From a virus, in the IMG/VR virus record IMGVR_UViG_3300049845_000008, positions 1 to 64,000 of that record: a DNA stretch of 64,000 bases; one strand, 5' to 3'. This document shows positions 785 to 49,740 of this stretch, piece after piece; the first letter of the stretch is position 1, and the number at the start of each line of letters is the position of its first letter. The notes under the pieces are model-generated. The model made no database searches and was not told where the DNA came from. It was given only the letters and a program-made list of their open reading frames with translations. The position numbers and the translations under genes are program-made.

Positions 785-805
785 AATAACTCCAAAGTAT
801 ACCGT

Positions 806-834
806 ATTATATCACGGTTGGATCAGTTTCACAA
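806..834 (-). promoter_or_regulatory. sigma70-type promoter for gp45 (TTGTGA-17-TATAAT, extended -10)
   Basis: Minus strand TTGTGA (834-829), 17-nt spacer, TGA-TATAAT (811-806), followed by a GGAG RBS. Confidence 0.65.
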
Positions 835-1432: not shown

Positions 1433-1433
1433 A

Positions 1434-28173: not shown

Positions 28174-28998
28174 TTATCCTACGAGAAAATCTGGTGGCAT
28201 TTCCCATGTGCTTCGAAGTTGTTCTTCTAGGCGAATGATATCGGCTACAGCCTCTTCGTAGATGCCTTGCCCGTTGATGATCATACCTCCCGGCAATGTG
28301 TAGTTACCGTACTTCTTCATGTTCTCGCCCCACTGCTTCTTGATAAGCTGCGTAGAGTATTCCTTGAGCCACTCGTCGTTGTAGACCTTGGGGAAGTCCA
28401 CGGGTTCGATGACGCGGGTGCATTCGATCATGAGGTAGGTGTCAGCCGGAACTTCTGGCGCATTCCAGTGCATATCGATGTAGAGCCTGCCCATGTGCTT
28501 GCTGAACCGAATCGGGTTCTGCCCGATAAGAATCATTTCCAACATGCGAATGTGGGTACGGGCAATCCAGTAATACTGGTAGGATGAACTGGTGAATTCG
28601 TAGAGTTCGTTCAGGCGCAACTGGTAGTTCAGGTCAAAGATATTGAAATTAGCACTAGAGCCGCCACCCGAAATGACTTCGCCGGTCAGAGGGAAGATGC
28701 GATTAACACCGACAACCCCTTCTGGCAGCGGAACCCAACCGTAACTGGAATTAGCGACTGTCGAGTTAGCCGAGGTCGCAGAAGCCACGTTGCTGCCGTT
28801 CGCCAACATGTCCGCAGTCATCTTGATGGCTAGGTAGTCGGGGAAGGTCGCATCGTAGTGGAACTGGACGTACTTCTGCAACGCATCGTCAATCCGGTCA
28901 TCGACCTGATCTTCGTCTACGTTAATGTCAATGACTGGAAAGCCTAGCTTGCGTAGGCAGTAGTCCTTGAGTGATGCTTTGTCGGTTGGTTTTGCCAT
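28174..28998 (-). CDS. gp13: Neck protein
   Basis: LKDYCLRKLGFPVIDINV, WLKEY...KKQWGEN, LPGG..NG. Confidence 0.96.
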   Translation of the reverse strand: MAKPTDKASLKDYCLRKLGFPVIDINVDEDQVDDRIDDALQKYVQFHYDATFPDYLAIKMTADMLANGSNVASATSANSTVANSSYGWVPLPEGVVGVNRIFPLTGEVISGGGSSANFNIFDLNYQLRLNELYEFTSSSYQYYWIARTHIRMLEMILIGQNPIRFSKHMGRLYIDMHWNAPEVPADTYLMIECTRVIEPVDFPKVYNDEWLKEYSTQLIKKQWGENMKKYGNYTLPGGMIINGQGIYEEAVADIIRLEEQLRSTWEMPPDFLVG

Positions 28999-29037: not shown

Positions 29038-29044
29038 TATTTAG
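29038..29044 (-). promoter_or_regulatory. Late promoter (CTAAATA) for gp13
   Basis: Recurrent motif. Confidence 0.72.
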
Positions 29045-29694
29045 GCAAACTTGATGCCCCTACTCTCAAGGAATCGGTAGTCTTCCTCAAGGTAGTCCCG
29101 AATCTCAGCCTCTTCGTGCGGGGCGAGCGCATCCCGATCCGGCAGGGTGATGGAATCGTTGATTTTGGGAATCGGCATGGGATTATCCACCCCGAGTTGA
29201 GTCAGAATCTTCGAAACCTCGTTTTGGTAGTCTTCGAAGTTCAACGGAATGACGGGACCGGAGAGCCATGGCTTGTGGGTTTTGCCATAGGGACCGCGCT
29301 CCATATGCATCTTAAGCTTGCGAAACACTTCGATCATGGGAATACAGTCACACATTTGCCTCATTTCGTGCTTCTCCCATTCCCAATAGTTCTCCTGAGA
29401 GGTATAGGATGCAGGTAAATAGCTACCATAGAATGCACGAAAGAACTTGGCGTGGTGTCGTCCGCGCCGCAGATAGTTCATGATGGAGATACACCGGTCA
29501 AGCGGATTCCGATAGAATGCGTAACATGTGTACTCATTCAAATTAGGGTATTCTTTCATTTCCTCGTATCTGGTATGAGCCTCGTCACACACGGCTAGTG
29601 GAATACCCAAACCGGCAACCGCCGTTCGAAGTGCCTTGCTTCCGGTCCTAGGTGTGAAGAAAACCATGACCTTTCTTTCAGTGGAAAGTATCAT
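29041..29694 (-). CDS. Sulfotransferase-family protein 1 (Sulfotransfer_2-like)
   Basis: 5'-PSB-like FFTPRTGS, 3'-PB-like AFYRNPLDRCIS, C-terminal Y.EDY.F. Confidence 0.72.
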   Translation of the reverse strand: MILSTERKVMVFFTPRTGSKALRTAVAGLGIPLAVCDEAHTRYEEMKEYPNLNEYTCYAFYRNPLDRCISIMNYLRRGRHHAKFFRAFYGSYLPASYTSQENYWEWEKHEMRQMCDCIPMIEVFRKLKMHMERGPYGKTHKPWLSGPVIPLNFEDYQNEVSKILTQLGVDNPMPIPKINDSITLPDRDALAPHEEAEIRDYLEEDYRFLESRGIKFA

Positions 29695-29990
29695 TGCCCA
29701 TCTTTCAACTTGCGTTCTTCGTCTGTCAGAGGAATGGTTTCCATCAGATCAGCCGCGATTTCATACTTGTTGCCCTTGTAGCCGTGGCGAATGGATTCCC
29801 ACAGGTACGAGAGGTAGAACTTGAACCAACCCTCTTCTTCGACCTGATAGATATGTTCTAGCTCATGGCGGAATAGGCGATCCGTGACTTCCTCTCGCGT
29901 GCGCTTGAAGAAGATGAATGGGTAGATGGTGATGCCGCCGATCCACGTTTTGCGGAGCGGAAGAAAGTGATAGACGATTCTGATTTTCAT
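29691..29990 (-). CDS. Small zincin-type metallopeptidase-like protein
   Basis: GGITIYPFIF...RHELEHIYQ...YEIAA (HExxH plus a distal Glu). Confidence 0.7.
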   Translation of the reverse strand: MKIRIVYHFLPLRKTWIGGITIYPFIFFKRTREEVTDRLFRHELEHIYQVEEEGWFKFYLSYLWESIRHGYKGNKYEIAADLMETIPLTDEERKLKDGQ

Positions 29991-29994
29991 TTTG

Positions 29995-30552
29995 TTATAC
30001 CTTGAAGGTGATGCCTCTTGATTCGAAAAACTCGTAGTCCTGCTTGTAGAATTCCTTTATGTACGTCACTTCTTCGGGAGTCAGGTCATTGACCGTTCTC
30101 CTGTTGTCACTGGCATTCAGCCTAGGAATGTGAATGTTGTCTGGTATGCCAACGATGCGCAACACCTTTCTCATTTCGTTTTCGAAGTCGGCGTAGTCTA
30201 GCAGGTTGACCTTCACCTCCTCCGGATTGAGCCACCGCACCTGCGGCACAAAGTAACCATACTTAGAAACATACTCCATGACGTTGCTGACTGGAACCAT
30301 GTGTGAATACTTCCTGTAGTTGAATGCCATGAAGGACAGAAACTTCTCCACCGGTTCCCGATAGAACGCATAGACCTGATATTCATCAACATTTGGAATA
30401 TCGAGTTGTTTGATGCTAGGGTGATTGGTCTGATTCTCTGTATAGATCTTATCGATTTTACCATGATCCAGTAGAATCTGTCGCAATGTATGCGTACCCG
30501 TCTTGTGTGGGTAGAGGATAATGACTTTCTTTTTGGTGTCTACGTATGCCAT
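29995..30552 (-). CDS. Sulfotransferase-family protein 2
   Basis: PHKTGTHT, AFYREPVEKFLS, PQVRW, PRLN.S, FYKQDYEFF. Confidence 0.72.
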   Translation of the reverse strand: MAYVDTKKKVIILYPHKTGTHTLRQILLDHGKIDKIYTENQTNHPSIKQLDIPNVDEYQVYAFYREPVEKFLSFMAFNYRKYSHMVPVSNVMEYVSKYGYFVPQVRWLNPEEVKVNLLDYADFENEMRKVLRIVGIPDNIHIPRLNASDNRRTVNDLTPEEVTYIKEFYKQDYEFFESRGITFKV

Positions 30553-30992
30553 TATTTTTCTGCCGTAGCTGACATGGTATGAGTACCAGTTGCAATAAGA
30601 ACACTGTTTGAGGTGTACCGAATTTCGACAGTGAGTGTTGCATCAAGAGTACCTGCGTTCTGTTGGTCGATTGAATAGCTTCTATCAGTTGCCATACCGA
30701 TCCATGTGTTGTTTGCCCACCCTGCTGAGAATGTTGGAACTGTCGTTCCAGAAGTAAACGTGGCTCTCAACTGATAATCAGCCGAAGCACCCGCCAATCT
30801 CCACGCATAGGAAGAGGCTCCCGTGGTACCAAATACTTGACATGTTCCGTTTGCCCAATGCCAAATAGAAGCATTGGACGAATCTAAACCAGAATCAGCC
30901 ACAGTCTTGTTCTGAACCTGCGCGTCAAGCACAGGCGGTGCAGCCGCCGCTTGCGCGTTGCCATAGGATAGGAGAATGTTGCGAATGCTCAT
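30552..30992 (-). CDS. Putative fibre-tip / virion protein
   Basis: S/T/G/N-rich beta-type domain shared with 31981-32814 and 45884-47107. Confidence 0.6.
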   Translation of the reverse strand: MSIRNILLSYGNAQAAAAPPVLDAQVQNKTVADSGLDSSNASIWHWANGTCQVFGTTGASSYAWRLAGASADYQLRATFTSGTTVPTFSAGWANNTWIGMATDRSYSIDQQNAGTLDATLTVEIRYTSNSVLIATGTHTMSATAEK

Positions 30993-31660
30993 GGGAAGGT
31001 TATTCCCTTGGATGTGAAGAAGTCATAGTCATCCTGATAGAACGCACGAATCTCAGCCGCGTCTTCTGGTGAGAGAATATCGATATCGGGACGCTTCGGT
31101 TGTTCGTTCTCGTTGGGAAGAACCCTGTCAGGATTTGCTCCGAACGCAGTCAGTAGTCTTCTCATTTCCGCGTCGTGATCGTGGAAGTTAAGAAGGATTA
31201 GATTGATGGACGGCTGATTTAGCCAGTTCACTTGCTTCGACCACGCCGCCAATCGCCCACTGTTGATTCGATCCTGCATTGCTCGCCAGACCTGAATCGG
31301 AGTGATGGTGTCGTTTGCAGCCTGCAATTCAGGAGAAAGATCCTCATAGAACTTTCGATTGAGGCATGAAATTCTTGCGCCGTTTCCCAAGACTCTGTGC
31401 ATGATTTCAGCACACCACCGACGCTTCATGAACATCAGCATGGAGAGCGCACGATCTAATGGTTCCCGATAGAACGCATAGAAGGTGAACGCACCCAACT
31501 GTGATTGCATCTGAGGAAACTGAACGAGCATTCCGTCCAGATTGATGTGATCGTGTGAGACATGCGTAAGCGATGCATCCCTGAACACTTCGTAGAGGGA
31601 ATGTGTGGCTGTCTTTGGCGGCATGAATACCGCTAGTTTTCGGGTGTTATCAATGATCAT
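30989..31660 (-). CDS. Sulfotransferase-family protein 3
   Basis: FMPPKTATHS, HDH, AFYREPLDRALS, QVNW, FYQDDYDFF. Confidence 0.75.
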   Translation of the reverse strand: MIIDNTRKLAVFMPPKTATHSLYEVFRDASLTHVSHDHINLDGMLVQFPQMQSQLGAFTFYAFYREPLDRALSMLMFMKRRWCAEIMHRVLGNGARISCLNRKFYEDLSPELQAANDTITPIQVWRAMQDRINSGRLAAWSKQVNWLNQPSINLILLNFHDHDAEMRRLLTAFGANPDRVLPNENEQPKRPDIDILSPEDAAEIRAFYQDDYDFFTSKGITFP

Positions 31661-31971
31661 TCTGTGTACGTCCCGTTGTAGATGCTCAGAATAACATCCA
31701 CGTTATGATCCTGCATGGCAAGCACATCTGAGTTATTCTCAACCCAACTATCCAACACCAGATCCCGAACGTCGGCGGATGGAATGAAAGTCTGTGGTGT
31801 GGGAGGAGGAAGATCAACCCAATGTGCGCTGCGATACATCTGCCCTGTTTCCAGATCAGTTGTGAGAAGGAACACTCGCAGTCTGGTGTAGACAGTATCG
31901 TTGAAGGTTGCGTCGAAATAGGATTCAGCGTCTTCTAATGGTATGTAGACCTTATGCTTATACGATGCCAT
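31657..31971 (-). CDS. Putative fibre-associated accessory/chaperone protein
   Basis: LPPPTPQTFIPSADV...LDSWVE resembles the FIPY.DLT...V..WV motif of small genes that follow phage fibres. Confidence 0.5.
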   Translation of the reverse strand: MASYKHKVYIPLEDAESYFDATFNDTVYTRLRVFLLTTDLETGQMYRSAHWVDLPPPTPQTFIPSADVRDLVLDSWVENNSDVLAMQDHNVDVILSIYNGTYTE

Positions 31972-31980
31972 GATGTAATC

Positions 31981-32814
31981 TCACTTAAAGTTGTGGCTCA
32001 ATACGCCTTCCATGAAGTATGTATGCGCGTCTTCGACTTCGAAGCTTACCACTTCACCGGCACCTACGTAGTCGATTGCGGTGATGGTACTCTTTCCGAG
32101 TCTCATGCCGACGTTCAGCTTACAGGCGCGTATCAGAGTGTCACCGTCTTCCAGATAGAAACGATGCAAGTCCGAACAGATAATTTCCTTGCCATCATCG
32201 AATCTGATGCGAAACTTGATGGCTTGCTGTATCTTGATGTTGGTGATTGGATAGGAACCCAATTCTTTTGTCGTTTCGTGAACCGCAAGCACTTTCATTC
32301 CGACCTTTAGTTCACCCGCACGGATAGTGGATCCATTCGCAAGCGTGATGCGCATACTTGGATCCGGACAACCCAAATACTCATACTCTGCCGAACATTC
32401 ACAATAGACGTTGGATATTAGTTTTAGAGAATTCTTTTCTCGCAATTGCAACCAAAACCGTATGTTGACTGCGGTAGTGGTTGTATAGATTCCCCACCAC
32501 GGATCTGCACCACAATCAATCCACGTATTTGCGGATGAACCCACAAGAGTTCCTCCCGATTGAGAGAAAAATCTTGCGTTGGCTTGATAGTTGTTTGCGC
32601 CGCCACCCTGCAACCAAATCATCTTCGGAAGTGTAGTGGTGAGTGTATTGGCTGTATAGAACGTGCCATTGCCCGTGATTGTATGTCCTCCACTATTCCA
32701 TATCTTAATGTCAGCCTGAGTTCTCGGTCCCGGTGTCACAGCACCCGAATTATAGTTTCGCGATATGAAAGTCCCGAATCTAGACCACTGTTGCGTGCCA
32801 CGCGCCACCGTCAT
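31981..32814 (-). CDS. Fibre-tip-like domain fused to a C-terminal Hint autoprocessing domain
   Basis: Hint starts at G|[13 protein letters not shown] (Cys149); block B ICSDLHRF; block [24 protein letters not shown]. Confidence 0.8.
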
Positions 32815-35800
32815 GTGATATCTCCTGAAACAATCGCTTCACCCGTGGTGGTGTAGAAGATGGAGGCTACGGAATACCTTGCGGCAAGGTTCGATGTGAT
32901 GTATCCTGCGGAGTTCAACTTCGCTACGCCCGTCGTGTTGGCAATGGTGACGTTGCCTGTGTTGGTTCTGATGATGGTGATACCGAAGCCTGCGTTGGTT
33001 GCAGCCGCGAGCGTGATCGTCATGGCTGTTGTCGAGTTGCAGAGCAGAACCTTACCTGCATGGTTATCGCTAACCGTTCGTGACGATGTTACCTGAATCA
33101 TCGGCATGTCCGAGACATTGCTCGTCATTCTCACATTGCCGCTGAACAATACGTCCGAAGAAACCGTCGTGCCGAAGGACGTACCCTGAGTACCCTGTCT
33201 TCCCTGTACACCCTGAATACCCTGCGCACCGGTAGCACCTTGCGATCCACCACCGCCACCGGTAGACTCAATGCTTCCTAGGAGATAGATGGCATTGGTT
33301 GCGGCGTAGACGATGGTGACGGCTGAGTTCTGCGAAGCGATGTTCGAAGTGGTGAACGTCGTGCTGTTCGACTTGAGCGCAAGGTTAGCAATCGTGACAT
33401 TGCCTGTTCCCTTACGAACCACCGTGACTGCAAAGCCAGAAGTAGACGAGTTAGCGAACGTGATCGTCGTCGCGGATCCGGAGTTGACTTCGACAATCTT
33501 ACCTGCGGCATTCTCAGCATAGTGCGTAGAAACGGCTGTAGTAATGATGGGTGTGTCAAACACCTGATCAGTGAACACCACGTTTGCGTTGAACGTAACG
33601 TCCGTGGCAACTGTCGTGCCGAACGAAGTACCCTGAATACCTTGAAGCCCTGTTGCGCCCTGAGAGCCAGTACCGGTAGCACCTTGAGTGCCTGTACCTG
33701 TCGTTCCCTGCCGACCTTGAAGCCCCTGAATGCCTTGCAATCCGGTGGTGCCTTGTGCACCCGTAGCACCTTGAGTTCCTGTTCCGGTTGTGCCTTGCGA
33801 TCCAGTTGCGCCTTGAGTACCGGTCAGTCCTTGTAGACCGGTCGTGCCTTGTGATCCACTTCCAGTGAGTCCTTGAAGACCCGTTGCACCTTGCGTGCCT
33901 GTTCCTGTGGTACCTTGAGTTCCAGTCAGTCCTTGTAGACCAGTGGTTCCCTGTGCGCCTGTTGCGCCTTGTGTTCCTGTGCCAGTTGCACCTTGCGTGC
34001 CGGTGCCAGTGGTTCCTTGCAGACCCGTAAGCCCTTGCAGACCAGTGGTTCCCTGCCGTCCTTGAATACCTTGCAATCCGGTCGTACCCTGAGAACCTGT
34101 AGTTCCCTGAATGCCAGTTGTACCTTGAGAACCCGTAGTTCCCTGAATGCCAGTTGTACCTTGTGCGCCGTTCGTCCCTTGCAGTCCAGTCGTACCCTGC
34201 GCACCCTTCCGCGCAACAGCAAGCTTGATCTTGAAGTTGCTAGAGAATGAGGTTGTCGTTCCGTTGTTGATGAGTGAAAGCCCGAATTCATAGTAGCCCG
34301 TCTTATTGGTTTTAGACGTAACAGTATACGAGAAGAACTTGGACGCATCACCCGGATCTTGTAGAAGAAAAATGTCGCCTACATTCGTGTAGTTGAGGAA
34401 CAAGCTTACGTCAACAGCACTATCGTTGAGAATGTCGATCCACATCAACGTTGCGAGTGTGAGGTTTGCGTTGTTCAGCTTCAACTTGCCCGAACCCGGA
34501 TCAGAGTCCGTGGTGCCGGTGTCGAATCGATAGTCCGTTGCTAGCGCAGAAACACCTTCGTTGCCAGTGATGCCCTGAGTTCCTTGCGAACCTGTGGTTC
34601 CCTGCAATCCAGTCAAACCCTGTAGCCCTGTGGTTCCTTGTGAACCTGTGGTGCCTTGCGATCCAGTCAAACCCTGTAGTCCAGTCGTACCCTGCGAACC
34701 CGTCGTTCCTTGGCGACCTTGAATACCTTGCAGACCAGTAAAACCTTGAAGTCCCGTCGTGCCTTGTGCGCCTGTGGTTCCCTGTGCGCCAGTCGAACCT
34801 TGAATGCCTGTAGCACCCTGAGTTCCAGTCGCGCCTTGAGAACCTGTAATGCCCTGTAGTCCCGTTGCGCCCTGAGTTCCTGCACCGGTCGCACCTTGAG
34901 TACCGGTTCCAGTGAGTCCCTGTAGACCAGTCGTTCCCTGTGAACCCGTCGTTCCCTGTGAACCCGTTGTGCCTTGAAGACCCGTTAGTCCTTGCAGCCC
35001 TGTGGTGCCTTGTGCACCCGTGGTGCCTTGTGAACCGGTCGAACCCTGAATGCCTGTGAGTCCCTGTAGTCCGGTTGTTCCCTGTGCGCCAGTGGTGCCT
35101 TGTGATCCGGTGGACCCTTGAATGCCAGTTGCACCTTGAGTACCTGTCGTACCCTGAATCGATGTACCCTGAACACCCTGAATACCTTGTGCGCCTGTTG
35201 CACCGGCTGCGCCGCCGAGATTAACATCCCAATTGGTAAACGTGCCAGAGCCACCCGTGGTTGCAATGGATGCCACCATGGTTCCGTTTGCGACGTAGTA
35301 GGAACTGACGGACCCTTCCATCTTGTTGACAGCCGTGTTTGCGATAACAACAGACTGTCCTGTGGAGTATGCAAGTCCGGTTGCAATGGTAAGTTGCTTA
35401 GTTCCGGTGCCAATTGTCAATGAGGTTGTAGACGTTGTGGCATACTTGTCACCGGCATTGCCCGTCGTGCCTTGAACACCCTGAATTCCCTGTGCACCGA
35501 TTGTTCCTTGTGCACCGGTGAATCCCTGAATGCCAGTAGCCCCTTGTGAGCCAGTCGTACCTTGAACACCCTGAATGCCTTGTGCGCCGGTCGTACCCTG
35601 AGTTCCGGTAAGTCCTTGAAGTCCGGTCGTTCCCTGCCGTCCTTGAATACCTTGCAAACCAGTGATGCCCTGTGCACCGGTCGAACCTTGTGTGCCTGTG
35701 AATCCTTGAATTCCTGTTGCGCCTTGAGAACCAGTCGTGCCTTGTGCGCCAGTGGTTCCCTGAGAACCTGTCGAACCCTGTAGACCAGTGGTTCCCTGCC

Positions 35801-36464
35801 GACCTTGAATGCCTTGGCTTCCGGTCGCACCTTGGCTTCCGGTCGCACCTTGGCTTCCGGTCGCGCCTTGCAACCCTGTCGTTCCCTGTGCACCCGTCGA
35901 ACCCTGAATGCCCGTAGCGCCTTGAGTTCCGGTTGCGCCTTGTGCACCAGTAATACCCTGATTAGAGATACCCTGAATACCTTGAATGCCGGTGAAGCCT
36001 TGAATGCCAGTGGCACCCTGAACACCCGCGCCGGTCAGACCTTGTGTGCCTTGCAGTCCGGTCGATCCCTGAGTACCTGTCGCGCCCTGAGAACCTGTGA
36101 TGCCTTGAATGCCCTGTGCGCCGGTTGATCCCTGAGTTCCAAGTGCGCCTTGCGTACCGGTGGCACCCTGAGTGCCTGTTGTTCCTTGCGGTCCTGCGAC
36201 GGTACCGGCAATGATCATGGAAACGTTGGCGTTGCCGGTCGGTCCCTGCGTCACGGATACGAGAATGTCGCTTGTGTTTACAAAGTTGATTCCGTTGGCA
36301 TTGATGGTGGATGCAGAGTTGGCTGAGACAAGAACTTCGGAGATTCCTCCACCACCGCCGAGTCCACCGCCTGCTTTCCAAGAATAGCCATCCCACTCCC
36401 AAGATGTACCATCATTGGAAGTGAAGATCGTACCGATGATGGGATTGGAAGGAAAGTCTGCCAT
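32811..36464 (-). CDS. Collagen-like fibre protein A (1217 aa)
   Basis: Long G-x-Q-G-x-T triple-helix tracts interrupted by globular domains; N-terminal FPSNP..G...W.WDG..W motif. Confidence 0.88.
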
Positions 36465-36498
36465 GAATGTACTCTAAGGTGGAAAGAGCTATGCCACC

Positions 36499-36505
36499 TA
36501 TTTAG
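36499..36505 (-). promoter_or_regulatory. Late promoter (CTAAATA) heading the collagen A-sulfotransferase operon
   Basis: Recurrent motif about 35 nt upstream of the ATG. Confidence 0.72.
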
Positions 36506-37275: not shown

Positions 37276-40113
37276 TTATGGGTCAAGATGCAACGCAACC
37301 GTGATGACGTTTGCGTTGACTACCGAAGGAGCGGAGTTTACGCGGAACTGAATGACGTTACCGGCAGCGATGACACCCGAAGACCATCCGGTGATGGAAG
37401 CACTGGTGTTCTTGCGAAGCGTGTCTAGTCGTGGAGAATTTGTCTGAGAAATCATGACTTCGTTCGTGAAGTCTGCAAGAGTAGTTGTCCAGATATCTAC
37501 GCGAATCGTAGCCGATGCCGAATTTGCATCCGACATGATTGACCATCCTGCGATGTTGCAGGCTTGTGAAGTGTAGATATAGCCCTTACTCTGTGCGGCT
37601 TCCGTAGTACCTGTCGCAATGATTGCTCCACCACCGTCGATGATGAAGTTGAGTGTGCGAGGACCGGCAATACCTTGAATGCCTGTGAGTCCTTGAAGAC
37701 CCGTCGTTCCTTGCGATCCGGTTCCGGTCGTGCCTTGCGTTCCTTGAAGTCCAGTTAGCCCCTGCAAGCCGGTAGCACCTTGCGTCCCTGCACCGGTAGT
37801 ACCTTGAGTTCCTTGAAGTCCAGTCAGCCCTTGAAGCCCCGTTGCGCCCTGTGTGCCTGCACCCGTGGTTCCTTGCGTCCCTTGAATGCCTTGCAGACCT
37901 GTAGTACCTTGCGAGCCGGTTCCAGTCAGACCTTGCAATCCGGTGGCACCCTGAGTTCCTGTTCCAGTTGTTCCTTGAGTTCCTTGAAGTCCAGTCAAAC
38001 CCTGAATACCGGTTGCGCCTTGAGTTCCCGCGCCGGTTGTACCCTGCGTTCCTTGCAGACCAGTTAGCCCCTGAATGCCTGTTGCACCCTGAGTTCCGGT
38101 TCCGGTCGTTCCCTGAATACCTTGCAACCCGGTCGTGCCTTGTGCGCCCGTGGTGCCTTGGCTACCGGTTCCTGTGAGTCCTTGCAGACCCGTTGCACCT
38201 TGCGTGCCGGTTCCGGTTGTGCCTTGTGTTCCCTGAAGTCCGGTGAGTCCTTGCAGACCTGTTGTACCTTGGCTACCCGAACCCGTAAGTCCTTGCAGCC
38301 CCGTCGTTCCCTGCGAGCCAGTGGTTCCTTGCAGCCCCGTCGTTCCCTGCGAGCCAGTGGTTCCTTGAAGACCTGTGGTGCCTTGTGAACCGGTAGCACC
38401 CTGAGTACCTGCGCCCGTGGTTCCCTGAATACCTTGAAGTCCGGTCGTACCCTGACTTCCGCTTCCAGTCAAACCTTGCAGACCGGTTGAGCCTTGAGTA
38501 CCCGTTGCGCCTTGTGTTCCCGCACCAGTGATGCCTTGAATACCCTGAATACCGGTTGCACCCTGACTTCCGCTGCCGGTCAATCCCTGTAGACCAGTGG
38601 TTCCCTGTGATCCTGTTGTGCCTTGGCTTCCAGTGAGTCCTTGTAGTCCTGTTGCACCTTGAGTTCCGGTTGCACCCTGCGCACCCGAACCAGTCAATCC
38701 CTGTAGACCCGTCGTACCCTGTGAACCGGTGAGTCCTTGCAGCCCTGTGGTTCCTTGTGAGCCAGTGGTTCCCTGAAGTCCGGTTGTTCCCTGCCGACCT
38801 TGCAAGCCTTGGATGCCTTGTAGCCCGGTGGCACCTTGCGAACCACTCGTTCCCTGCGCACCATTCGTTCCCTGAGAACCTGTAAGTCCCTGAATGCCTG
38901 TGAGTCCTTGAAGACCCGTCGTGCCTTGTGCGCCGGTTGTTCCCTGTGAGCCTGTAAGCCCCTGTAGACCAGTTGCGCCTTGCGTACCGGTCGATCCCTG
39001 TAGCCCGGTGGTTCCTTGTGAACCTGTGGATCCCTGTAGACCAGTCGTACCCTGCGAGCCTGTGGATCCCTGTAGACCAGTGGTTCCCTGTGAGCCTGTA
39101 AGCCCCTGTAGTCCTGTAGTGCCTTGCGATCCTGTTGCGCCCTGTGTACCGGCACCGGTCGCACCTTGAGGACCAGTTGCACCGGGAGTTCCTGCGAGGT
39201 TGATGCTCCAAGAAGTGAACGTACCTGTGCCGATGACAGAAGCAACGTCAACCACCAACTGTCCGTTTCCGGCGTTGTAGGAGTTGACCGTACCTTCCAT
39301 GGAGTGCGTCGAGTCATTCGCAATGATGACCGTCTGCCCTGCTGAGTAAGCCAAACCAGTGTCTACCGTCAGTGTCTTCTGTGCGACGGTAATCGAAAGA
39401 GAAGTCGTAGAGGTTGTTACGTATTGGTCGCCGGGTTCACCGAGCGTTCCTTGAACACCCTGAATGCCTTGCAGACCTGTAGTACCTTGCGTACCCGTTG
39501 AACCTTGCAATCCGGTCGTGCCTTGAGAACCTGTAGTTCCTTGGCGACCCTGAATGCCTTGAATACCCTGCAAACCAGTGGTGCCTTGAGTGCCTGTGGT
39601 TCCTTGTGCACCATTCGTTCCCTGTGTGCCGGTTGCACCTTGCGTGCCTGTGCCGGTGAGTCCTTGCAGACCCGTTGCACCTTGCGTACCTGTGCCTGTG
39701 GTTCCCTGTGCACCGGTCGAACCCTGCGTACCACTTCCGGTCAACCCCTGAATGCCGGTCGAACCTTGTGTGCCTGTGAGTCCTTGAAGTCCAGTGGTTC
39801 CCTGTGTTCCTGCGCCCGTGGTGCCTTGCGTTCCGGTTGCGCCTTGTAATCCAGTGGTGCCTTGAACACCCTGAATGCCTTGGGATCCGTCGCCCGTTCC
39901 ACCGCCGCCTGCCGGTCCTTGAATACCCTGAATGCCTTGTGCGCCGTTGCCCGTTCCACCACCGGGACCGACAAAGTATCCGGCTGAGTTGATGACGAGT
40001 TGATTACCAACCTGAACCTCGGCTGCATTGACAACACCGTTCGCCAACACCACGTTTGCGAGCGTGTTGCTGCTGTTAATGCGAATCTGTTTTGAGGTAG
40101 GCTTGTTTGGCAT
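37276..40113 (-). CDS. Collagen-like fibre protein B (945 aa)
   Basis: About 500-aa nearly continuous G-X-Y tract; C-terminal domain beginning LNFIIDGGG. Confidence 0.88.
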
Positions 40114-44589: not shown

Positions 44590-45510
44590 TTAGTATCCCG
44601 TTAAAATTAGATTGGTGAGGGTTTGAAGAGGAACGGTGTTTGCATCAGCCCCGGTTGTTCCCTGAATACCTTGTGCACCCGATCCTGTGGTTCCCTGCAA
44701 ACCAAAGGATCCCTGAATACCGGTTAAACCCTGAATGCCCGTGGTTCCTTGAATGCCTTGTGCACCAGTGATACCTTGCAGTCCACTGAAACCCTGAATG
44801 CCCGTTGCTCCTTGAGAGCCTGTGATGCCTTGAGAGCCTGTGATGCCTTGTAGTCCAACAGAACCCTGTGTGCCTGTGGCTCCTTGAATACCGGTCGATC
44901 CTTGAGTTCCGATGGCTCCCTGCGATCCTGTCGATCCCTGAGTACCTGTCGAACCCTGAATACCAGTGAGTCCCTGTGTTCCGATGATGCCTTGCGTTCC
45001 GTCAGAACCTTGAATGCCTGTCGATCCCTGAGTACCGGTGGCACCCTGAACACCCGCACCCGTGACACCCTGAACACCATAGAATCCCTGAATACCGGTC
45101 GCGCCTTGCGATCCCGAACCCGTTGCACCCTGAAGTCCCTGAAGTCCTGTGGCACCCTGTACACCGTCGATGATGCCGATGGAAGTGAAGATACGAGCTT
45201 CGACCGTATCACCTTCGTCGGGAGCGACCACAAAGTTAAGGGTATTCCCCGAGAGTGTGTAATGAGTATTAGGAACCTGAACGACACCGTTGAGGGTGAC
45301 GATGATAAAGTCAGTTCCGTAAGGACGATGGCTCAGAACATAGGAAGACTCAGCTACGCCTGCGACAAACGTATCGCTGATGATGGTAGTGTTACCATCC
45401 GTACCGTCCGATCCCGGCACGCCTGCGCGAATGTTGATGGTTCCTAGGGACGATACCGGGGATACCTCAACCTTGCCGACGCGATTCTGAGACTTGATTT
45501 CAACCTTCAT
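44590..45510 (-). CDS. Collagen-like protein C (306 aa)
   Basis: VTLNGVVQVP..HY.L.GNTL.F..AP..GD domain followed by about 170 aa of G-X-Y. Confidence 0.85.
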   Translation of the reverse strand: MKVEIKSQNRVGKVEVSPVSSLGTINIRAGVPGSDGTDGNTTIISDTFVAGVAESSYVLSHRPYGTDFIIVTLNGVVQVPNTHYTLSGNTLNFVVAPDEGDTVEARIFTSIGIIDGVQGATGLQGLQGATGSGSQGATGIQGFYGVQGVTGAGVQGATGTQGSTGIQGSDGTQGIIGTQGLTGIQGSTGTQGSTGSQGAIGTQGSTGIQGATGTQGSVGLQGITGSQGITGSQGATGIQGFSGLQGITGAQGIQGTTGIQGLTGIQGSFGLQGTTGSGAQGIQGTTGADANTVPLQTLTNLILTGY

Positions 45511-45883: not shown

Positions 45884-47107
45884 TTACGTACCACCTTCGA
45901 CGGTCGCGGTTGCCACTATGTAGCAATTGACATTGGCTACAGTAACGTTATCACTGCGTCTGCGGAACTCCAACCAACCCGTCGCAGTAGAATCTGCTTG
46001 TCCTAATCCAGTCTTTTTCGCATAGCAACCCCAAGACAAATCGTTTGAGACTTGATGCCATGTGTTTGCGGTATTGCCAAGAAGTGTGGTGTTGCCCGTG
46101 GCTGCAATTCTGGTAAATCGAACATCAAAGTTCGATGTAATCGTGGAGTCTGACGAAGAAAACAATCTTTTCAGCCATGTCTGATAATATCCAGAAGACC
46201 CATTGGCTGTGGCGTACACGAATGAACTAGCCTCGGCTGAACCCGGATCAAATCCCATCGCATCAGCAAAATATTCAAATGCAGTCTTTCCCGTAGGGTA
46301 GGTATTTCCTTTGAATCCCATCTCATCGGCACCCAAGAAATCTCTTATCTTGATGGTTCCGGAGGCTGGAATGAATCCATTATACCCCACGGCTGTTGGA
46401 CTGGTCACATAGCTGCCACCGCGTAGAAATGCTCTCAGATTATTAGCGGTCGAGTTGGTATACCACGTTAGCCTAACCTGCCCGGCTGCGCCGTCGCCAC
46501 CCGTAGTGATGGTGGAGTTAGCAGGACCGCCACCACCACCGGGCGCGGTGCCGTCGAGAGTCGGCGCACCACCTGCGCCGCCACTGGATCCTGCACCTCC
46601 GGATGACACGTTACCGTTCGCACCGGCTGTGTTGACAACATTCAGTTCCATGTATGAGTGTATGGTTGAATTAACACCTCCCGCCAAACCAGAATCCGTT
46701 TTTCCACCGCTGCCACCGTCTGCGGTCAGTGTGGCGCTACCATAACCCGGAACACTGTTGGCAGAAGAAAATCCACCAGAGGAACCATTGGCACTAGAAG
46801 CACCACCTGCGCCACCCGTACCGACTTTATATCCGATTGAGGTTGTGCCGGGAATAACAGGCACAGTGACACTGAGATAAGCACCACCGCCGCCACCATA
46901 CTCTGAAAAGATAGCATTGTAGCCGCGACCACCGCCACCGCCACCCCACAATTCGATCTTACACCAGACAGCATCCGAAGGAGCGGTCGAATATCCAGTA
47001 GCCCCGGAAGTGGTGTATGTGTCCGTGCGCGAGACACCACCATAGGTGTACGCATCCCTGATATCAGAGAGGAAGATCGTCCCCGAATTAGCAATACCGC
47101 GACCCAT
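45884..47107 (-). CDS. Glycine-rich fibre-tip/adhesin protein
   Basis: ELWGGGGGG...GGGGGAY...VG.GG.GG polyglycine domain (gp38-like architecture); SGTI..SD motif; follows the S74 fibre. Confidence 0.7.
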   Translation of the reverse strand: MGRGIANSGTIFLSDIRDAYTYGGVSRTDTYTTSGATGYSTAPSDAVWCKIELWGGGGGGRGYNAIFSEYGGGGGAYLSVTVPVIPGTTSIGYKVGTGGAGGASSANGSSGGFSSANSVPGYGSATLTADGGSGGKTDSGLAGGVNSTIHSYMELNVVNTAGANGNVSSGGAGSSGGAGGAPTLDGTAPGGGGGPANSTITTGGDGAAGQVRLTWYTNSTANNLRAFLRGGSYVTSPTAVGYNGFIPASGTIKIRDFLGADEMGFKGNTYPTGKTAFEYFADAMGFDPGSAEASSFVYATANGSSGYYQTWLKRLFSSSDSTITSNFDVRFTRIAATGNTTLLGNTANTWHQVSNDLSWGCYAKKTGLGQADSTATGWLEFRRRSDNVTVANVNCYIVATATVEGGT

Positions 47108-47109
47108 GA

Positions 47110-49740
47110 TTACTTCCCTTCAAGAACTTTGATACGTTCGCTCAGTTCCTTGATGGCTTCTAGCAGGACAGGAACCAGTCGGTCGTAGGACACGCGGAGA
47201 TATCCGGCGCTGTCTTCGTGCACGGCTTCTGGCAATACAGCCAGAACTTCCTGTGCGATCACACCGATTTCATTACCCGTGGTGTTCTCATAGCCAATTT
47301 CAAGTGCAAGATCGTTCCAACGATACTTGATCGTGTGAATCTTCTCTAGTGTGTCAACGGCATTCTCGACGTTTCCAACAATGTTCTTGAGTCGAATATC
47401 GGACGTTGCAGCGAAGTCGGTCGCATACACAATTCCGGCATTCATGTAGACCACGCCGTTGTTGATGTATGGAGTGTAGTTAGCACCGGCAGACTGAACA
47501 CCGACTAGCTGCCAGTTTCCACCCGTGCTTGTGGTCGCGTTAATTGCGGTCGAAGGACCGGTGGAACCTTGCGTTCCTTGGCGACCCTGCAAACCCTGAA
47601 TGCCCTGTAGACCAGTGATACCCTGTGCGCCAGTGGTTCCTTGAGTACCGGTTGCGCCCTGCGTACCCGTAGCACCCTGCGTTCCGGCACCCGTGGTACC
47701 TTGCAGACCTAGCGTACCCTGAGAACCGGTAAAGCCTTGCAGCCCTTGAATACCCTGAATGCCTGTGGTACCCTGAGAACCGGTTGCACCTTGCGTACCC
47801 GCGCCTGTGATACCTTGCAGACCTGTCGAACCTTGAATACCGGTCGCGCCCTGCGTACCGATACCAGACGTTCCTTGTGCGCCAGTAGTACCTTGCGTGC
47901 CTGCACCAGTGAGTCCCTGAATACCGGTGGCTCCCTGTGTACCTGTGCCGGTCGTACCTTGAATACCTGTCGAACCCGTGGTGCCTTGGCGACCCTGAAT
48001 ACCTTGAATACCCTGAATACCTTGTGCACCGTCCGAACCGATGAAGCCGTTGATACCCTGTGCACCGGTTGCACCCTGAATACCCTGTGGTCCGAGCAAT
48101 GCAGGATTAGAGTTATCGACGGCGAACGAAATGTTTGCGTTACCGTTGATGCCTGCGCCCACCGTGACGAGAACCGTCGCAGTGTTGTTGAAGTTGATGC
48201 CGTTTGCCTTCGCAATGGTCGAGCCGGTGTTGGCTGAGACACGTACCGTGTTGGCTGCACTGTTCGAAGATACGAGTGCGGCAATCGCGTTGATGTTCGC
48301 AGCGTTGACGAGCAAGGCGGATGCGACGTTGCCGGTATCGGTCGAGTAGACAGTCTGGACGTTGGCACTGGTGATCAGTGTTGAATACGTGCCTAGATCG
48401 TTTGCAGTTGCTCGCCACGTATTAGAGGTAGTGGAGAATGCAATCTGAGCGTTACCGTTTGTCGTGCCTTGGAACACACCGAACGAACCGTCGCCGCGAG
48501 TCGTCTGAGCAACGCGCAGTCTGTAGGATGAAGAGTCCGATTCGGATGGTGCAGAGATTGGATCCTTTACCGTGAGGCTTGTGACTTCCAGAGTCGCGAT
48601 GTTTGCAAGAATAACGTTTGCTCTGGTAGTGACATTCAGCAAGCCAATCGATGCGTTAGTGGTGACACTGTTCGCAGTCGATACGTTAGCAAAGTTGGCT
48701 GTTGCACCCGCAGCCGCGACGTTCAGAGTTGCAACGTTTGCGGTGACGATGTTGGCGAGGACTGCGTTTGCGCGAGTTGTGACGTTCAGCGTGCCGATGG
48801 ATGCGTTGGTCGTCGTCGTGTTTGCGAGCGTGACGTTCGCAAAGTTAGCGGTTGCACCGGCTGCGGCGACGTTCAGTGTCGCGACATTGGCTGTGACAAC
48901 GTTGGCGAGAACCGCATTCGCAGCAGTGGTGACAACCAATGTGCCGATAGAAGCATTGGTCGTGATCGTGTTTGCGAGTGTGACGTTGGCGAAGTTCGCG
49001 ACGGAACCCGTGGCTGCGACGTTCAGTGTGGTGACGTTGGCTACGGTAGCGACGAACTTGGTATAGACGTTCATGACCGATGCAACGGCATTGGTCGTAT
49101 TAGAGTTAGAAGTAAAGACGTTGGCGAAGTTCGCGGTTGCGCCGGTCGTGTTCGCGTGGAGCGTCAGAACGTTCTGAGTGGTCGTGTTGGCTAGTGTGAT
49201 GCGAGCGTTGCCAATTGTAGCTACGTTGGATACCTGAATGTTGCCGGTGATGTAGACGTTGGAACTGTTAGCCACCGAACGAACGACAAACACGTTGGCT
49301 ACGTTCATGATCACGTTGCCGTTGGCATAGGTTCCAGAAGTTTCGATGAATCCGGATGCGTTGACGTTGGCTAGCGACGAGAATGTGTTGTTGTAGAGGA
49401 AGCGAGTACGAGTGTTGCCGTTGGCATGAATCGTGCCGTCGCCTGCGCGGAACTTGATATCCAGAGAGTCAGAGTACAGGTAGGCTGCACCACCGTCCTG
49501 TTCGAAGTTCTTAAGCGAAACCTTACCCGATACGCGAGCGTCAGCCGTAACGTCCAACATCGTGCCGGTGGCGTTGGCTAGAACCAGTTTACCTACGGTG
49601 AAGGTGACGTTTCCGACTGGCTTGGTGAATTCACCACGCGCAATTTCATTAACGTCGTTCGCCATTAGGTTGTCACGGATTCTCCAAACCTCAAAGGTAT
49701 TGGTAGTTTGGATGATCGTGCTGTTTGATACATTAGCCAT
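47110..49740 (-). CDS. Tail fibre with Asn-rich repeats, collagen segment and C-terminal intramolecular chaperone (peptidase S74)
   Basis: ATSDIRLKN...Y.WN...IGVIAQEV..VLPEAV...V.YDRLVPVLLEAIKEL; 50-aa tandem repeats; G-X-Y tract. Confidence 0.88.
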   Translation of the reverse strand: MANVSNSTIIQTTNTFEVWRIRDNLMANDVNEIARGEFTKPVGNVTFTVGKLVLANATGTMLDVTADARVSGKVSLKNFEQDGGAAYLYSDSLDIKFRAGDGTIHANGNTRTRFLYNNTFSSLANVNASGFIETSGTYANGNVIMNVANVFVVRSVANSSNVYITGNIQVSNVATIGNARITLANTTTQNVLTLHANTTGATANFANVFTSNSNTTNAVASVMNVYTKFVATVANVTTLNVAATGSVANFANVTLANTITTNASIGTLVVTTAANAVLANVVTANVATLNVAAAGATANFANVTLANTTTTNASIGTLNVTTRANAVLANIVTANVATLNVAAAGATANFANVSTANSVTTNASIGLLNVTTRANVILANIATLEVTSLTVKDPISAPSESDSSSYRLRVAQTTRGDGSFGVFQGTTNGNAQIAFSTTSNTWRATANDLGTYSTLITSANVQTVYSTDTGNVASALLVNAANINAIAALVSSNSAANTVRVSANTGSTIAKANGINFNNTATVLVTVGAGINGNANISFAVDNSNPALLGPQGIQGATGAQGINGFIGSDGAQGIQGIQGIQGRQGTTGSTGIQGTTGTGTQGATGIQGLTGAGTQGTTGAQGTSGIGTQGATGIQGSTGLQGITGAGTQGATGSQGTTGIQGIQGLQGFTGSQGTLGLQGTTGAGTQGATGTQGATGTQGTTGAQGITGLQGIQGLQGRQGTQGSTGPSTAINATTSTGGNWQLVGVQSAGANYTPYINNGVVYMNAGIVYATDFAATSDIRLKNIVGNVENAVDTLEKIHTIKYRWNDLALEIGYENTTGNEIGVIAQEVLAVLPEAVHEDSAGYLRVSYDRLVPVLLEAIKELSERIKVLEGK
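48590..49050 (-). repeat. About three 150-bp (50-aa) tandem repeats within the tail fibre
   Basis: Unit ANVATLNVAAAGATANFANVTLANTTTTNASIGTLNVTTRANAVLANIVT; boundaries approximate. Confidence 0.8.

Follow-up and report, generated by a model that had tools for sequence, protein, structure and literature searches.

What three sulfotransferase-like genes might be doing in the structural region of a T4-like phage is the question raised by this locus, which comes from an uncultured freshwater phage whose major capsid protein shares 56-58% identity with its counterparts in HTVC008M, Melnitz, and cyanophages. In the window (the whole 64,000-nucleotide stretch of DNA analyzed here), eight minus-strand genes run tightly coupled from 36464 to 29041 (Table 1), with overlaps of 4, 4, 4, 1, and 4 nt and gaps of 9 and 4 nt at their junctions; all eight open reading frames of the original prediction, spaced by overlaps or gaps of less than 10 nt, do exist. 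The three sulfotransferase genes lie between the collagen-like fiber genes and the neck genes, each adjoining a small tail-associated protein, which makes sulfation of the phage's own fibers probable. The conserved anchor of this variable slot is the gp13 gene, followed by gp14 (head closure) and gp15 (tail sheath stabilizer). Independent freshwater metagenome contigs align to the region with 0 mismatches and bridge the ST2-NTW146-ST3, ST3-acc104-NTW-Hint, and gp13 promoter-ST1-HExxH junctions, so the gene arrangement is not an assembly artifact. With about an even chance of being right, the unit can be seen as a late-expressed fiber-decoration module that occupies a hypervariable slot between the fiber genes and gp13.

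Table 1. Coordinates of the eight-gene unit and of the associated features in the window
Feature	Position	Strand	Remarks
CTAAATA late-promoter-like motif	36499..36505	-	35 nt upstream of collagen A start codon
Collagen A, collagen-like fiber protein, 1217 aa	32811..36464	-	GxQGxT hexads
NTW-Hint protein, 277 aa	31981..32814	-	NTW domain and terminal Hint autoprocessing domain
NTW domain of NTW-Hint	32386-32676	-	about aa 47-143
Hint domain of NTW-Hint	31984-32370	-	aa 149-277
acc104, 104 aa	31657..31971	-	overlaps ST3 start
ST3, sulfotransferase paralog, 223 aa	30989..31660	-	PAPS-binding motif residues kept
NTW146, stand-alone NTW-domain protein, 146 aa	30552..30992	-	40-49% identical homologs
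ST2, minimal sulfotransferase, 185 aa	29995..30552	-	Pfam Sulfotransfer_2, AF2 model
HExxH protein, possible minimal zincin, 99 aa	29691..29990	-	conserved HExxH...E
ST1, sulfotransferase paralog, 217 aa	29041..29694	-	PAPS-binding motif residues kept
Next CTAAATA motif	29038..29044	-	overlaps ST1 stop codon, 40 nt upstream of gp13
gp13-type head-tail adaptor	28174..28998	-	PHROG 211 "head-tail adaptor Ad2," E 1e-34
Third NTW protein, Gly_rich_2 tail-fiber-type with C-terminal NTW (aa 320-401)	45884..47107	-	Pfam, jackhmmer

The late-promoter motif reported upstream of collagen A is present on the minus strand as CTAAATA, and its promoter function is putative. The window carries 8 copies of this heptamer, compared to 3.0 expected (8 were reached in 1 of 100 shuffles); every copy lies on the coding strand, 7 of them at a distance of 25-41 nt upstream of a start codon. 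A search for the canonical T4 late promoter, TATAAATA, found none. Since another copy precedes gp13, two such motifs bracket the eight-gene unit, and the second of them marks its downstream edge.

The three enzymes are genuine sulfotransferase-fold proteins: the fold and the PAPS-binding motifs of the original prediction are borne out by Pfam, the family profile, an AF2 model, and residue conservation. ST2 scores 30.3 bits against Pfam Sulfotransfer_2 (cut-off, 22), a threshold passed by 77 of the 129 members of its family. Among the best 50 structural matches of its AF2 model (pLDDT 94, pTM 0.89) are sulfotransferases only (Z up to 11), with Z values of 10-11 across 170-177 residues for NDST1, HS 2-OST, and 3-OST. 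The likeness to the NDST1 sulfotransferase domain and to the latter two enzymes includes the fold, the 5'-PSB and 3'-PB motifs, and the C-terminal DY motif, but the identity is only 13-16%, and the cytoplasmic phage enzymes, shorter by 60-100 residues, have no glycan-binding loops. Against the PDB, the family profile likewise found sulfotransferases alone, in alignments covering the 5'-PSB and 3'-PB motifs; ST3 also had a weak match to PHROG 3347. R65, P67, and S73 are 100% conserved among the 129 family members, and K/R17, T18, G19, H44, and R70 are conserved in at least 90%. The PAPS-contacting motif residues and the candidate catalytic His are retained in all three paralogs, ST1 keeping R16 (a Lys/Arg position across the family), T17, G18, H40, R62, P64, R67, S70, N179, D205, and Y206, and ST3 keeping K16, T17 (followed by A18), H38, R65, P67, R70, S73, N185, D211, and Y212; such conservation would be the pattern expected of active enzymes.

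The motifs originally quoted for these enzymes (P[KR]T[GA]/HKTG, YAFYR.P..[RK]..S, and the C-terminal DY.F..S[RK]GI.F) are all there, as is the insertion after the 3'-PB motif, ∼35-45 residues that are found in ST1 and ST3 and are absent from ST2. Their description as local paralogs holds with respect to paralogy and fails with respect to recent local copying: pairwise identities are just 26-33% (31% for ST3 versus either ST1 or ST2), and the three proteins do not cluster together in a tree with their relatives, so they are ancient paralogs. ST1 has the longest branch in that tree and lacks a close ortholog among the fetched loci. None of the three has a membrane anchor or a signal peptide.

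In collagen A, which contains 212 Gly-X-Y triplets in runs of at least 6, with Gln (52%) and Thr (40%) dominating the Y position and no Pro or Lys at all, the repeats are interrupted by globular segments and followed by two repeated domains at the C-terminal end; its N terminus and C-terminal domain are common to the fibers of relatives. Both of the presumed tip proteins are encoded, "tip" being a label rather than a finding, and what they have in common is a beta-rich uncharacterized domain, here named NTW: an hhalign comparison establishes homology between the N-terminal domain of NTW-Hint and the NTW146 family (96.7%, E 3.9e-10). AF2 modeled the NTW part poorly; for NTW146, the Atlas model alone gave a weak Ig-like beta-sandwich lead. 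A third copy of the domain (jackhmmer E 4e-19) is fused to a Pfam Gly_rich_2 protein whose PHROG matches are to tail fiber assembly, minor tail, and tail fiber families. In the complete 172.6-kb relative G001, the ortholog of this protein is followed by an acc104-like gene (25% identity to acc104) and a sulfotransferase gene, the same position that acc104 has here; Pfam and PHROG searches with acc104 itself returned no family match.

The Hint autoprocessor assignment is confirmed at the level of the fold, with Foldseek TM scores of 0.75-0.82 (target-normalized) to mini-inteins and BIL2, while the Pfam matches (PT-HINT, Intein_splicing, and Hint) are all sub-threshold. Like the BIL and Hedgehog-type domains, it is terminal, carries an N-terminal Cys nucleophile and a block-B S/TxxH motif, and has no endonuclease; Cys149, Ser214, and His217 are invariant across 5 homologs. 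Unlike those domains, it lacks a C-extein and is fused to an NTW domain, a fusion for which no description was found in the literature. The protein ends in His-Asn (missing in more distant homologs) followed by just Phe-Lys and the stop codon, so the domain can cleave or transfer but not splice. As for the predicted peptidase, the HExxH...E pattern is conserved (H42, E43, H46, and E77 are invariant across 11 homologs), whereas peptidase identity is a label that goes back to this motif and a weak eCIS_core match. The latter (PF13699; 5 of the 11 members) reflects a short GxTxxPxIxF...HExxHxxQ pattern shared with eCIS_core/DUF4157 proteins, from which this putative zincin-like protein differs in being stand-alone, 99 aa long, and scoring 13 bits versus the cut-off of 22. 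Further weak leads come from Atlas and from PHROG 15610 "protease" (E 1.2e-4).

The genomic association of sulfotransferases with fiber genes extends to relatives, as the original prediction implied. A sulfotransferase-HExxH pair adjoins gp13 in ten related contigs, and the HExxH gene lies next to a sulfotransferase gene just upstream of gp13 wherever upstream DNA is visible. Two of these contigs, L028 and L029, have the order collagen, NTW-Hint, ST, NTW, ST, ST, HExxH, gp13. In ∼10 cases among related phage contigs, a sulfotransferase gene is preceded immediately, or nearly so, by an NTW gene, and in four contigs, including L028 and L029, an NTW146 homolog is immediately upstream of an ST2 ortholog. 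Sister clades fill the same slot, adjoining collagen fibers, with glycosyltransferase or 2OG-oxygenase cassettes, and more distant phages encode the same sulfotransferase family beside collagen fibers along with P4H-type 2OG oxygenases, GT1, GT2, and PF11397 GlcNAc-transferases. In the close clade, Thr occupies 22-40% of the collagen Y positions in sulfotransferase-bearing contigs and no more than 10% in most contigs without a sulfotransferase, a correlation drawn from few, phylogenetically related, and partly truncated contigs. An exception is L021, whose collagen is Thr rich although the 10 kb upstream of gp13 contain no sulfotransferase gene. Four other contigs encode NTW proteins without a sulfotransferase. 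In L014 and L027, the neighbors of the sulfotransferase gene are not fiber genes; both contigs have a Vut_1 transporter gene beside it, and L014 has a porin-like gene there as well.

The best reading, in which our confidence is evenly balanced, is that the phage sulfates fiber or accessory proteins of its own late in infection, in the cytoplasm and with PAPS from the host. The late-type promoter would drive one message, translationally coupled as judged from the sequence, for a proline-free, Thr/Gln-rich collagen-like fiber, two NTW proteins, and three soluble, signal peptide-free sulfotransferases. In the cytoplasm of the infected cell, these enzymes would draw on PAPS made by the host and O-sulfate structural proteins of the phage, either ahead of assembly or while it proceeds. 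The likeliest acceptors would be the NTW-domain proteins whose genes immediately precede each enzyme gene, the two forming enzyme-substrate gene pairs; Thr/Ser hydroxyls of the collagen fibers, or sugars on them, are other possible acceptors, and the three divergent paralogs, which differ by the post-3'-PB insertion, may have different ones. Hint self-cleavage at Gly148|Cys149, predicted from the fold and the catalytic residues, would set the NTW domain free or, in the manner of BIL and Hedgehog domains, pass it on to a different molecule. In the weakest step, the small HExxH protein encoded beside the gp13-adjacent sulfotransferase may act as a zincin in processing. Taken together, these steps would give the fibers or whiskers a negative charge and change their adhesion or their recognition of the host. 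No PAPS-synthesis gene, and specifically no APS kinase, is encoded in the 73.8-kb contig or in G001, as originally noted for the shorter sequence, so the activity of these enzymes depends on host PAPS. No glycosyltransferase was found in the operon or, above threshold, in the 73.8-kb contig, where the PF00535 search was empty; a weak Anp1-like match lies at 1434-2249. Such sulfation chemistry has been predicted, but no measurement for any phage was found in the literature.

The main rival explanation, clearly less probable than own-fiber sulfation, is that the enzymes act on the host, sulfating envelope glycans or cytoplasmic precursors (O-chain, capsule, or EPS) during infection and thereby blocking superinfection or keeping progeny from sticking to cell debris; the position next to the fiber genes would then merely reflect a hypervariable "host recognition cluster" that gathers accessory genes. 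Glycosyltransferases of the fiber clusters of pelagimyophages and cyanomyophages have been read this way (PMC7029224), PHROGs places the sulfotransferase family among auxiliary metabolic or host-takeover genes, and the transporter- and porin-like flanks of the sulfotransferase-HExxH pair in L014 and L027 keep this alternative live. Moreover, Sulfotransfer_2 comprises carbohydrate sulfotransferases and the best structural matches are heparan sulfate enzymes, a kinship that, with no glycosyltransferase in the operon, would count against the own-fiber reading. Also counting against it are L021, the NTW-only contigs, the L014/L027 flanks, and the dependence on host PAPS. Sulfation of host targets, however, fits poorly with genes that sit inside a late-type, translationally coupled structural operon, with enzymes devoid of membrane anchors and signal peptides, with the repeated pairing with NTW structural-type proteins, and with the location of both G001 sulfotransferases within the fiber module; late envelope remodeling would presumably also bring little gain to a lytic T4-like phage.

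Sulfation of a small molecule or a short peptide with no virion role, either a metabolite or a RaxX-like peptide modified in the manner of RaxST/RaxX and matured by the HExxH protease, appears unlikely. The minimal size of the enzymes (185-223 aa, with no large acceptor-binding loops) and the constant proximity of a putative peptidase would suit it, and acc104 and NTW146 could be the precursors. Nevertheless, NTW is a folded domain also found fused to a tail-fiber-type protein, neither transporter nor leader-peptide features were observed, the unit bears signals of late structural co-expression, and in relatives the sulfotransferase occurs beside collagen fibers in the company of hydroxylases and glycosyltransferases that modify proteins. 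Very unlikely is a non-catalytic role as structural or binding components, e.g., as nucleotide- or sulfated-glycan-binding fiber accessory proteins. Pfam searches with ST1 and ST3 individually gave nothing above any cut-off, and the 5'-PSB motif has its Lys replaced by Arg in ST1 and its Gly by Ala in ST3. These substitutions, though, are normal family variants (20% for K-to-R and 5% for G-to-A), and the PAPS-contacting residues and candidate His are conserved in 129 divergent members as well as in all three paralogs.

Collagen-like surface fibers are also known from Bacillus (BclA), Clostridioides difficile (BclA3, with SgtA), and mimivirus (collagen L71, with L230), where Thr or hydroxy-Lys is glycosylated by enzymes encoded nearby. 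Sulfation is not known from any of these systems, and no homolog of the transferases that serve them was found in the phage operon.

One of the closest precedents is the prediction by Iyer, Abhiman, de Souza, and Aravind (2010) of bacterial hydroxylase-sulfotransferase operons acting on collagen-like/T4 gp12-type tail-collar proteins (PMC2938197). There, too, the gene for a P-loop sulfotransferase neighbors those for its proposed substrates, Gly-rich proteins of collagen-like or phage-fiber type, and 2OG oxygenases recur in the more distant relatives of the phage locus. That prediction, however, concerned bacteria, required prior hydroxylation, and often included a PAPS synthetase, whereas the phage operon has neither a hydroxylase nor a PAPS gene, its collagen lacks the Pro and Lys residues, and its three sulfotransferase genes are set among others that encode NTW proteins, a Hint domain, and an HExxH protein. 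The sulfotransferase fold and the fiber association in the original interpretation stand, and its "new system" has a forerunner in the 2010 prediction; sulfate on virions, glycans as its acceptor, and the status of a new system are all conjectural. The host recognition cluster of pelagimyophages and cyanomyophages (Zaragoza-Solas et al., 2020; PMC7029224) is similarly hypervariable; in these aquatic T4-like myophages, it combines tail fiber genes, collagen repeats, and carbohydrate-active enzymes. The enzymes reported from it are glycosyltransferases, not sulfotransferases ("sulfo" occurs 0 times in that paper), and are read as modifying the host O-chain; enzyme-structural gene pairs are not described there. 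New in the present locus and its relatives are the repeated NTW-sulfotransferase pairing, the sulfotransferase-HExxH pair at gp13, and the alternative cassettes in sister clades.

Eight ORFs on the minus strand, in the order collagen A, NTW-Hint (277 aa), acc104 (a 104-aa protein), ST3, NTW146, ST2, the HExxH protein, and ST1, overlap by 1 to 4 nt or are separated by gaps of 4 and 9 nt, just as the original prediction had described; NTW, for a conserved Asn-Thr-Trp, is a domain of the 277-aa protein and of the stand-alone NTW146. The late-type motif proposed to precede the operon, at positions 36499-36505, was likewise confirmed and reads CTAAATA on the minus strand, which carries nearly all credible genes of the contig. 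The window contains 8 copies of this motif versus 3.0 expected, all of them on the coding strand, and 7 of the 8 lie 25 to 41 nt before the start codon of structural genes. The next copy, at 29038-29044, is found ahead of the gene for the head-tail adaptor gp13, so that the eight genes form a single motif-bracketed unit. The window lacks the canonical late promoter of T4, TATAAATA, and, judging from sequence, CTAAATA is a candidate late-promoter consensus of this phage clade that would stand in place of TATAAATA of T4. Scans for consensus sigma-70 promoters and terminators gave only background levels. Contigs from an independent freshwater study match the operon without mismatches and span the ST2-NTW146-ST3, ST3-acc104-NTW-Hint, and ST1-HExxH junctions. 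Overall, the evidence shows three predicted sulfotransferases (STs) that share a transcript, from an inferred promoter, with genes for fibres and fibre accessories and are coupled to these in translation.

All three enzymes contain the sequence motifs originally quoted for them, as seen in a full-length alignment (31 to 33% identity), including both parts of the binding site for the sulfate donor PAPS (the 5'-PSB PKxGxT loop and the 3'-PB R...S motif). ST2 scores above the threshold of the Pfam Sulfotransfer_2 family (PF03567; 30.3 bits, cut-off 22). ST1 and ST3, searched alone, have no Pfam match and only weak matches to PHROG 3347, and are linked to ST2 through the 31 to 33% identity and a common family profile. 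That profile, built from the three enzymes, retrieved 545 metagenomic representatives (clustered at 50%), nearly all of 180 to 250 aa; 77 of 129 aligned family members match Sulfotransfer_2 (E <= 0.01), and a PDB search with the family profile returned sulfotransferases only, aligned at the 5'-PSB and 3'-PB motifs. Among the 129 sequences, R65, P67, and S73 are 100% conserved, K/R17, T18, and G19 are conserved in 90 to 100%, and H44, R70, Q104, N146, D172, and Y173 in 90% or more; ST1, ST2, and ST3 keep these residues, barring the K-to-R and G-to-A variants that are typical of the family. The AlphaFold2 model of ST2 (pLDDT 94, pTM 0.89) has the sulfotransferase alpha/beta fold, matching NDST1, HS 2-OST, and the 3-OSTs with Z scores of 10 to 11 (VIA) and an rmsd of 3.4 to 3.9 A over 170 to 177 of its 185 residues. 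All 50 structural matches listed (VIA) are sulfotransferases, and the Foldseek results are concordant. The candidate catalytic-base His, conserved in 90% of the family, is H44 in ST2, H40 in ST1, and H38 in ST3; in the ST2 model it belongs to the loop of the lowest confidence (pLDDT 68 for residues 31-40 and 88 for residues 41-50). No signal peptide or membrane segment was detected in any of the three; they are apparently cytoplasmic, PAPS-type sulfotransferases and are predicted to be active. Their description as local paralogues did not survive: a tree that includes relatives gives ST2 clear orthologues in four contigs (49 to 59% identity) and leaves ST1 and ST3 on long, unplaced branches, which indicates that the paralogues are old. 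Cluster look-ups for the family returned metagenome proteins only, and two motif-limited pattern scans of the genomes of 185,579 prokaryote species, which are not proof of absence, yielded no relatives of this subfamily.

NTW146 and the N-terminal domain of the 277-aa protein are homologues (hhalign probability 96.7%, E = 3.9e-10), and the same domain ends (aa 320-401) a Gly_rich_2 protein with PHROG matches to tail fibre and minor tail families. In the complete related genome G001, the orthologue of the Gly_rich_2 protein is directly followed by an acc104-like gene and then by a sulfotransferase gene; acc104 itself has no family match, and its position between the NTW protein and the sulfotransferase is kept in that genome. 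The AlphaFold2 model of NTW is poor for residues 1-72 and modest for residues 73-143. Its Atlas matches are to Ig-like adhesin domains (TM score about 0.5, from a model with pLDDT 0.52), so a beta-rich, Ig-like fold is suggested as a lead only. The conserved Asp-Tyr-Asp of NTW was considered as a site of tyrosine sulfation and rejected, as the NTW proteins of the related contigs L028 and L029 have Phe there, yet precede ST2 orthologues. Some NTW-type or neighbouring small proteins share an N-terminal motif, LS..IQTEFGGSNPI.LSEYY, which may be an attachment module of virion accessory proteins.

The predicted Hint domain at the end of the 277-aa protein was borne out by structure comparison (Foldseek E = 1e-8; TM scores of 0.75 to 0.82, normalised by target, to mini-inteins, BIL2, and a Clostridium BIL domain), with Pfam Hint-type matches under the cut-off (22.5 versus 27.7). 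Residues C149, S214, and H217 (block-B T/SxxH) are invariant among homologues. After the terminal His-Asn come just Phe-Lys and the stop codon, without a Cys, Ser, or Thr as the +1 residue of a C-extein, and the more distant homologues in L028 and L029 lack His-Asn; splicing is thereby excluded, and identification of the protein as an intein was rejected. For this domain, the plausible chemistry would be cleavage at its N-terminal side or transfer. The HExxH protein (99 aa), a candidate zincin metallopeptidase, has invariant H42, E43, H46, and E77. A match to eCIS_core/DUF4157 (PF13699) is seen in 5 of 11 family members and reaches 13 bits at best (cut-off 22), and a PDB profile search returned no peptidase, only chance matches to I-CreI. 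Wherever the upstream DNA is visible, its gene is never found without a sulfotransferase gene.

Collagen A carries a long Gly-X-Y repeat, with 212 triplets in runs of 6 or more (190 in the neighbouring fibre), and would have to form any triple helix without Pro or Hyp. Its Y position is occupied by Gln in 52% and Thr in 40% of triplets, Pro and Lys being absent. Two further fibres of the window score above the threshold of the Pfam Collagen family (PF01391), and of the four separate proline-free collagen-like proteins that the window encodes, the 876-aa collagen-repeat fibre has Peptidase_S74, an intramolecular chaperone domain, at its C-terminus.

The 64-kb window is the beginning of an IMG/VR contig of 73.8 kb with an estimated completeness of 41%. 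The contig is that of a T4-like myovirus: downstream of the operon are genes for gp13, gp14 (head closure), and gp15 (tail sheath stabilizer), followed by terminase, sheath, tube, portal, and capsid genes. The phage's major capsid protein shares 56 to 58% identity with its counterparts in Pelagibacter phage HTVC008M, the Methylophilales Melnitz phages, a Stenotrophomonas phage, and marine cyanomyophages. Near-identical DNA is present in freshwater and freshwater-sediment metagenomes of several studies. Nucleotide and tblastn searches of a cultured-phage collection with the operon and ST2 gave no match, which left no annotated close relative for comparison; no Rfam families or tRNAs were detected in the window.

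Comparison was made with 15 loci fetched via the sulfotransferases and 80 via gp13, across which homologues were mapped. The close clade (gp13 identity of 62% or more) includes ten contigs with one to three sulfotransferases and the HExxH gene immediately upstream of gp13, and the gene order of the window is almost exactly repeated in L028 and L029. The association of sulfotransferases with fibres in the genomes of relatives holds, for example, in these two contigs and in G001 (172.6 kb, with terminal repeats), which encodes exactly two sulfotransferases, both within the fibre module, and a sole GT2 far away. In about ten cases an NTW gene lies upstream of a sulfotransferase gene, either directly or via acc104. 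NTW genes also occupy the same place without a sulfotransferase (L022, L030, L031, and L037), so that NTW has the look of a resident structural component to which a sulfotransferase is optionally added. Within the close clade, Thr accounts for 22 to 40% of collagen Y positions in sulfotransferase-carrying contigs and for 10% or less in most contigs without sulfotransferases, a correlation that is suggestive only, given the small number, relatedness, and partial truncation of the contigs and a clear exception in L021. In the sister clade (gp13 identity of about 48 to 52%; more than 25 contigs), the slot holds a GT1, an unknown 250-aa gene, a DUF6445 gene, and a GT2, and the collagen fibres upstream of this cassette are Pro-rich (P at 60 to 72% of triplets). 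Some other contigs encode P4H-type 2OG oxygenases: L003 combines an oxygenase with a sulfotransferase and glycosyltransferases, L002 and L013 have an additional PF11397 GlcNAc-transferase, and on the unrelated phage backbones L011 and L015 a cassette of a conserved protein, an oxygenase, and a sulfotransferase follows the fibre genes. Hydroxylases are found beside the sulfotransferase in all five of these loci. No match to the 2OG-Fe(II) hydroxylase family PF13640 was found in the 73.8-kb contig (41% complete), and the window locus is a sulfotransferase-only variant of such hydroxylase-transferase cassettes.

Coordinates and locations of features in the window and in related phage loci
Feature	Coordinates or position	Strand	Sequence
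Proline-free collagen-like protein (876-aa fibre)	47110-49740	-	window
Proline-free collagen-like protein	44590-45510		window
Proline-free collagen-like protein	37276-40113		window
Proline-free collagen-like protein (collagen A)	32811-36464	-	window
CTAAATA copies	15276, 18018, 24212, 29038, 36499, 40138, 45867, 58870	-	window
Gly_rich_2 protein with NTW domain	45884-47107	-	window
Parts of ST3 and acc104 identical to RNA-library contigs	31375-31510, 31710-31881		window
271-aa protein	1434-2249	-	window
CobS-like ATPase and 782-aa gene	3186-4601 and 5620-7968	-	window
NTW-sulfotransferase pairs			window (twice), G001/L026 (twice), L028/L029 (twice), L019, L020, L025
Sister-clade four-gene cassette	immediately upstream of gp13, in place of the sulfotransferase module		L045-L071 and L083
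Proteins with the shared N-terminal motif	1250-1801; 5533-6069; 69951-70529; 6126-6710		L019; L022; G001; L013
Vut_1 gene directly upstream of sulfotransferase-HExxH pair	1744-2974; 57-1303		L014; L027
APS-kinase-like protein of G002	1333-1785	-	L096

The most economical reading, of moderate confidence, is self-modification of the phage's fibre apparatus. In relatives, the slot of the operon is filled by other enzymes that modify proteins or glycans, beside collagen fibres. The candidate acceptors are the NTW proteins together with the Thr-rich collagen or its sugars, and host PAPS would serve as the sulfate donor. In keeping with the earlier remark that no PAPS-synthesis gene was visible, APS_kinase matches are absent both from the 73.8-kb contig (41% complete) and from the complete G001. 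The main rival, that the sulfotransferases modify glycans of the host surface, appears unlikely; it has a published precedent in the glycosyltransferases of pelagimyophage fibre clusters, which were read as modifying host surface glycans (PMC7029224), and it fits the counter-example of contigs L014 and L027, where a Vut_1 gene (YhhQ-type vitamin or queuosine-precursor transporter) flanks the sulfotransferase-HExxH pair, joined in L014 by a signal-peptide, porin-like gene. Sulfation of a small molecule or peptide and a non-catalytic role of the sulfotransferase-fold proteins are less likely. Modification of the phage's own fibres could also take the form of direct O-sulfation, with each minimal sulfotransferase acting, without a glycan, on Ser, Thr, or Tyr of its cognate NTW protein or of the Thr-rich, proline-free collagen, and the Hint domain then ligating the sulfated NTW module covalently to the fibre; this scheme is quite improbable.

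Systems of this kind are already known, so far by prediction only, and the window locus adds a variant. Bacterial operons for the hydroxylation and subsequent sulfation of collagen-like and tail-collar proteins were predicted by Iyer et al. (2010; PMC2938197), whereas the operon of the window has no PF13640 hydroxylase match. According to a 2023 phage paper (PMC10580990), what phage sulfotransferases do "remains unclear", and the phrases "phage-encoded," "viral," and "virus-encoded sulfotransferase" were not found in the literature searched. Particular to the window are the sulfotransferase-only composition, in which every one of the three divergent paralogues has a non-enzymatic partner gene, the occurrence of NTW in three domain architectures, a terminal Hint domain that does not splice, and the sulfotransferase-HExxH pair conserved at gp13. 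If the virion fibres are sulfated, the particles would bear a strongly anionic, enzyme-installed modification that could alter how they adsorb and aggregate, their host range, and their binding to mucus or particles in lakes, and virions would take up sulfur drawn from the PAPS pool of the host. The locus would then be a tractable test case for Aravind's 2010 prediction of collagen-like protein sulfation outside animals, the enzymes being small and soluble and an obvious candidate substrate being encoded beside each of them. If the scheme of direct O-sulfation with Hint ligation is true, protein sulfation by a virus-encoded pathway and Hint-mediated conjugation during the assembly of virions would both be firsts.

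Several further observations concern the phage and its relatives. Parts of ST3 and acc104 recur identically in two short contigs of a sediment metatranscriptome (RNA-library) run, which on its own does not show transcription. The distant sulfotransferase-carrying phage G002 (158.9 kb, 94% complete), which has the oxygenase-sulfotransferase cassette of L015, encodes a 150-aa APS-kinase-like protein (34.9 bits, above the cut-off) with a P-loop and a D-x-V-R...FS..R pattern that may represent a phage-encoded step in PAPS supply. In the window, a 271-aa protein whose gene adjoins that of the gp45 clamp weakly matches Anp1 (GT-A mannosyltransferase; 22 bits versus a cut-off of 28.8), is 79% conserved in G001 and 28% identical to the product of a gene in the unrelated sulfotransferase-carrying contig L011, and may be the glycosyltransferase of the clade. 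A CobS-like AAA_5/CbbQ_C ATPase is encoded near a 782-aa gene.
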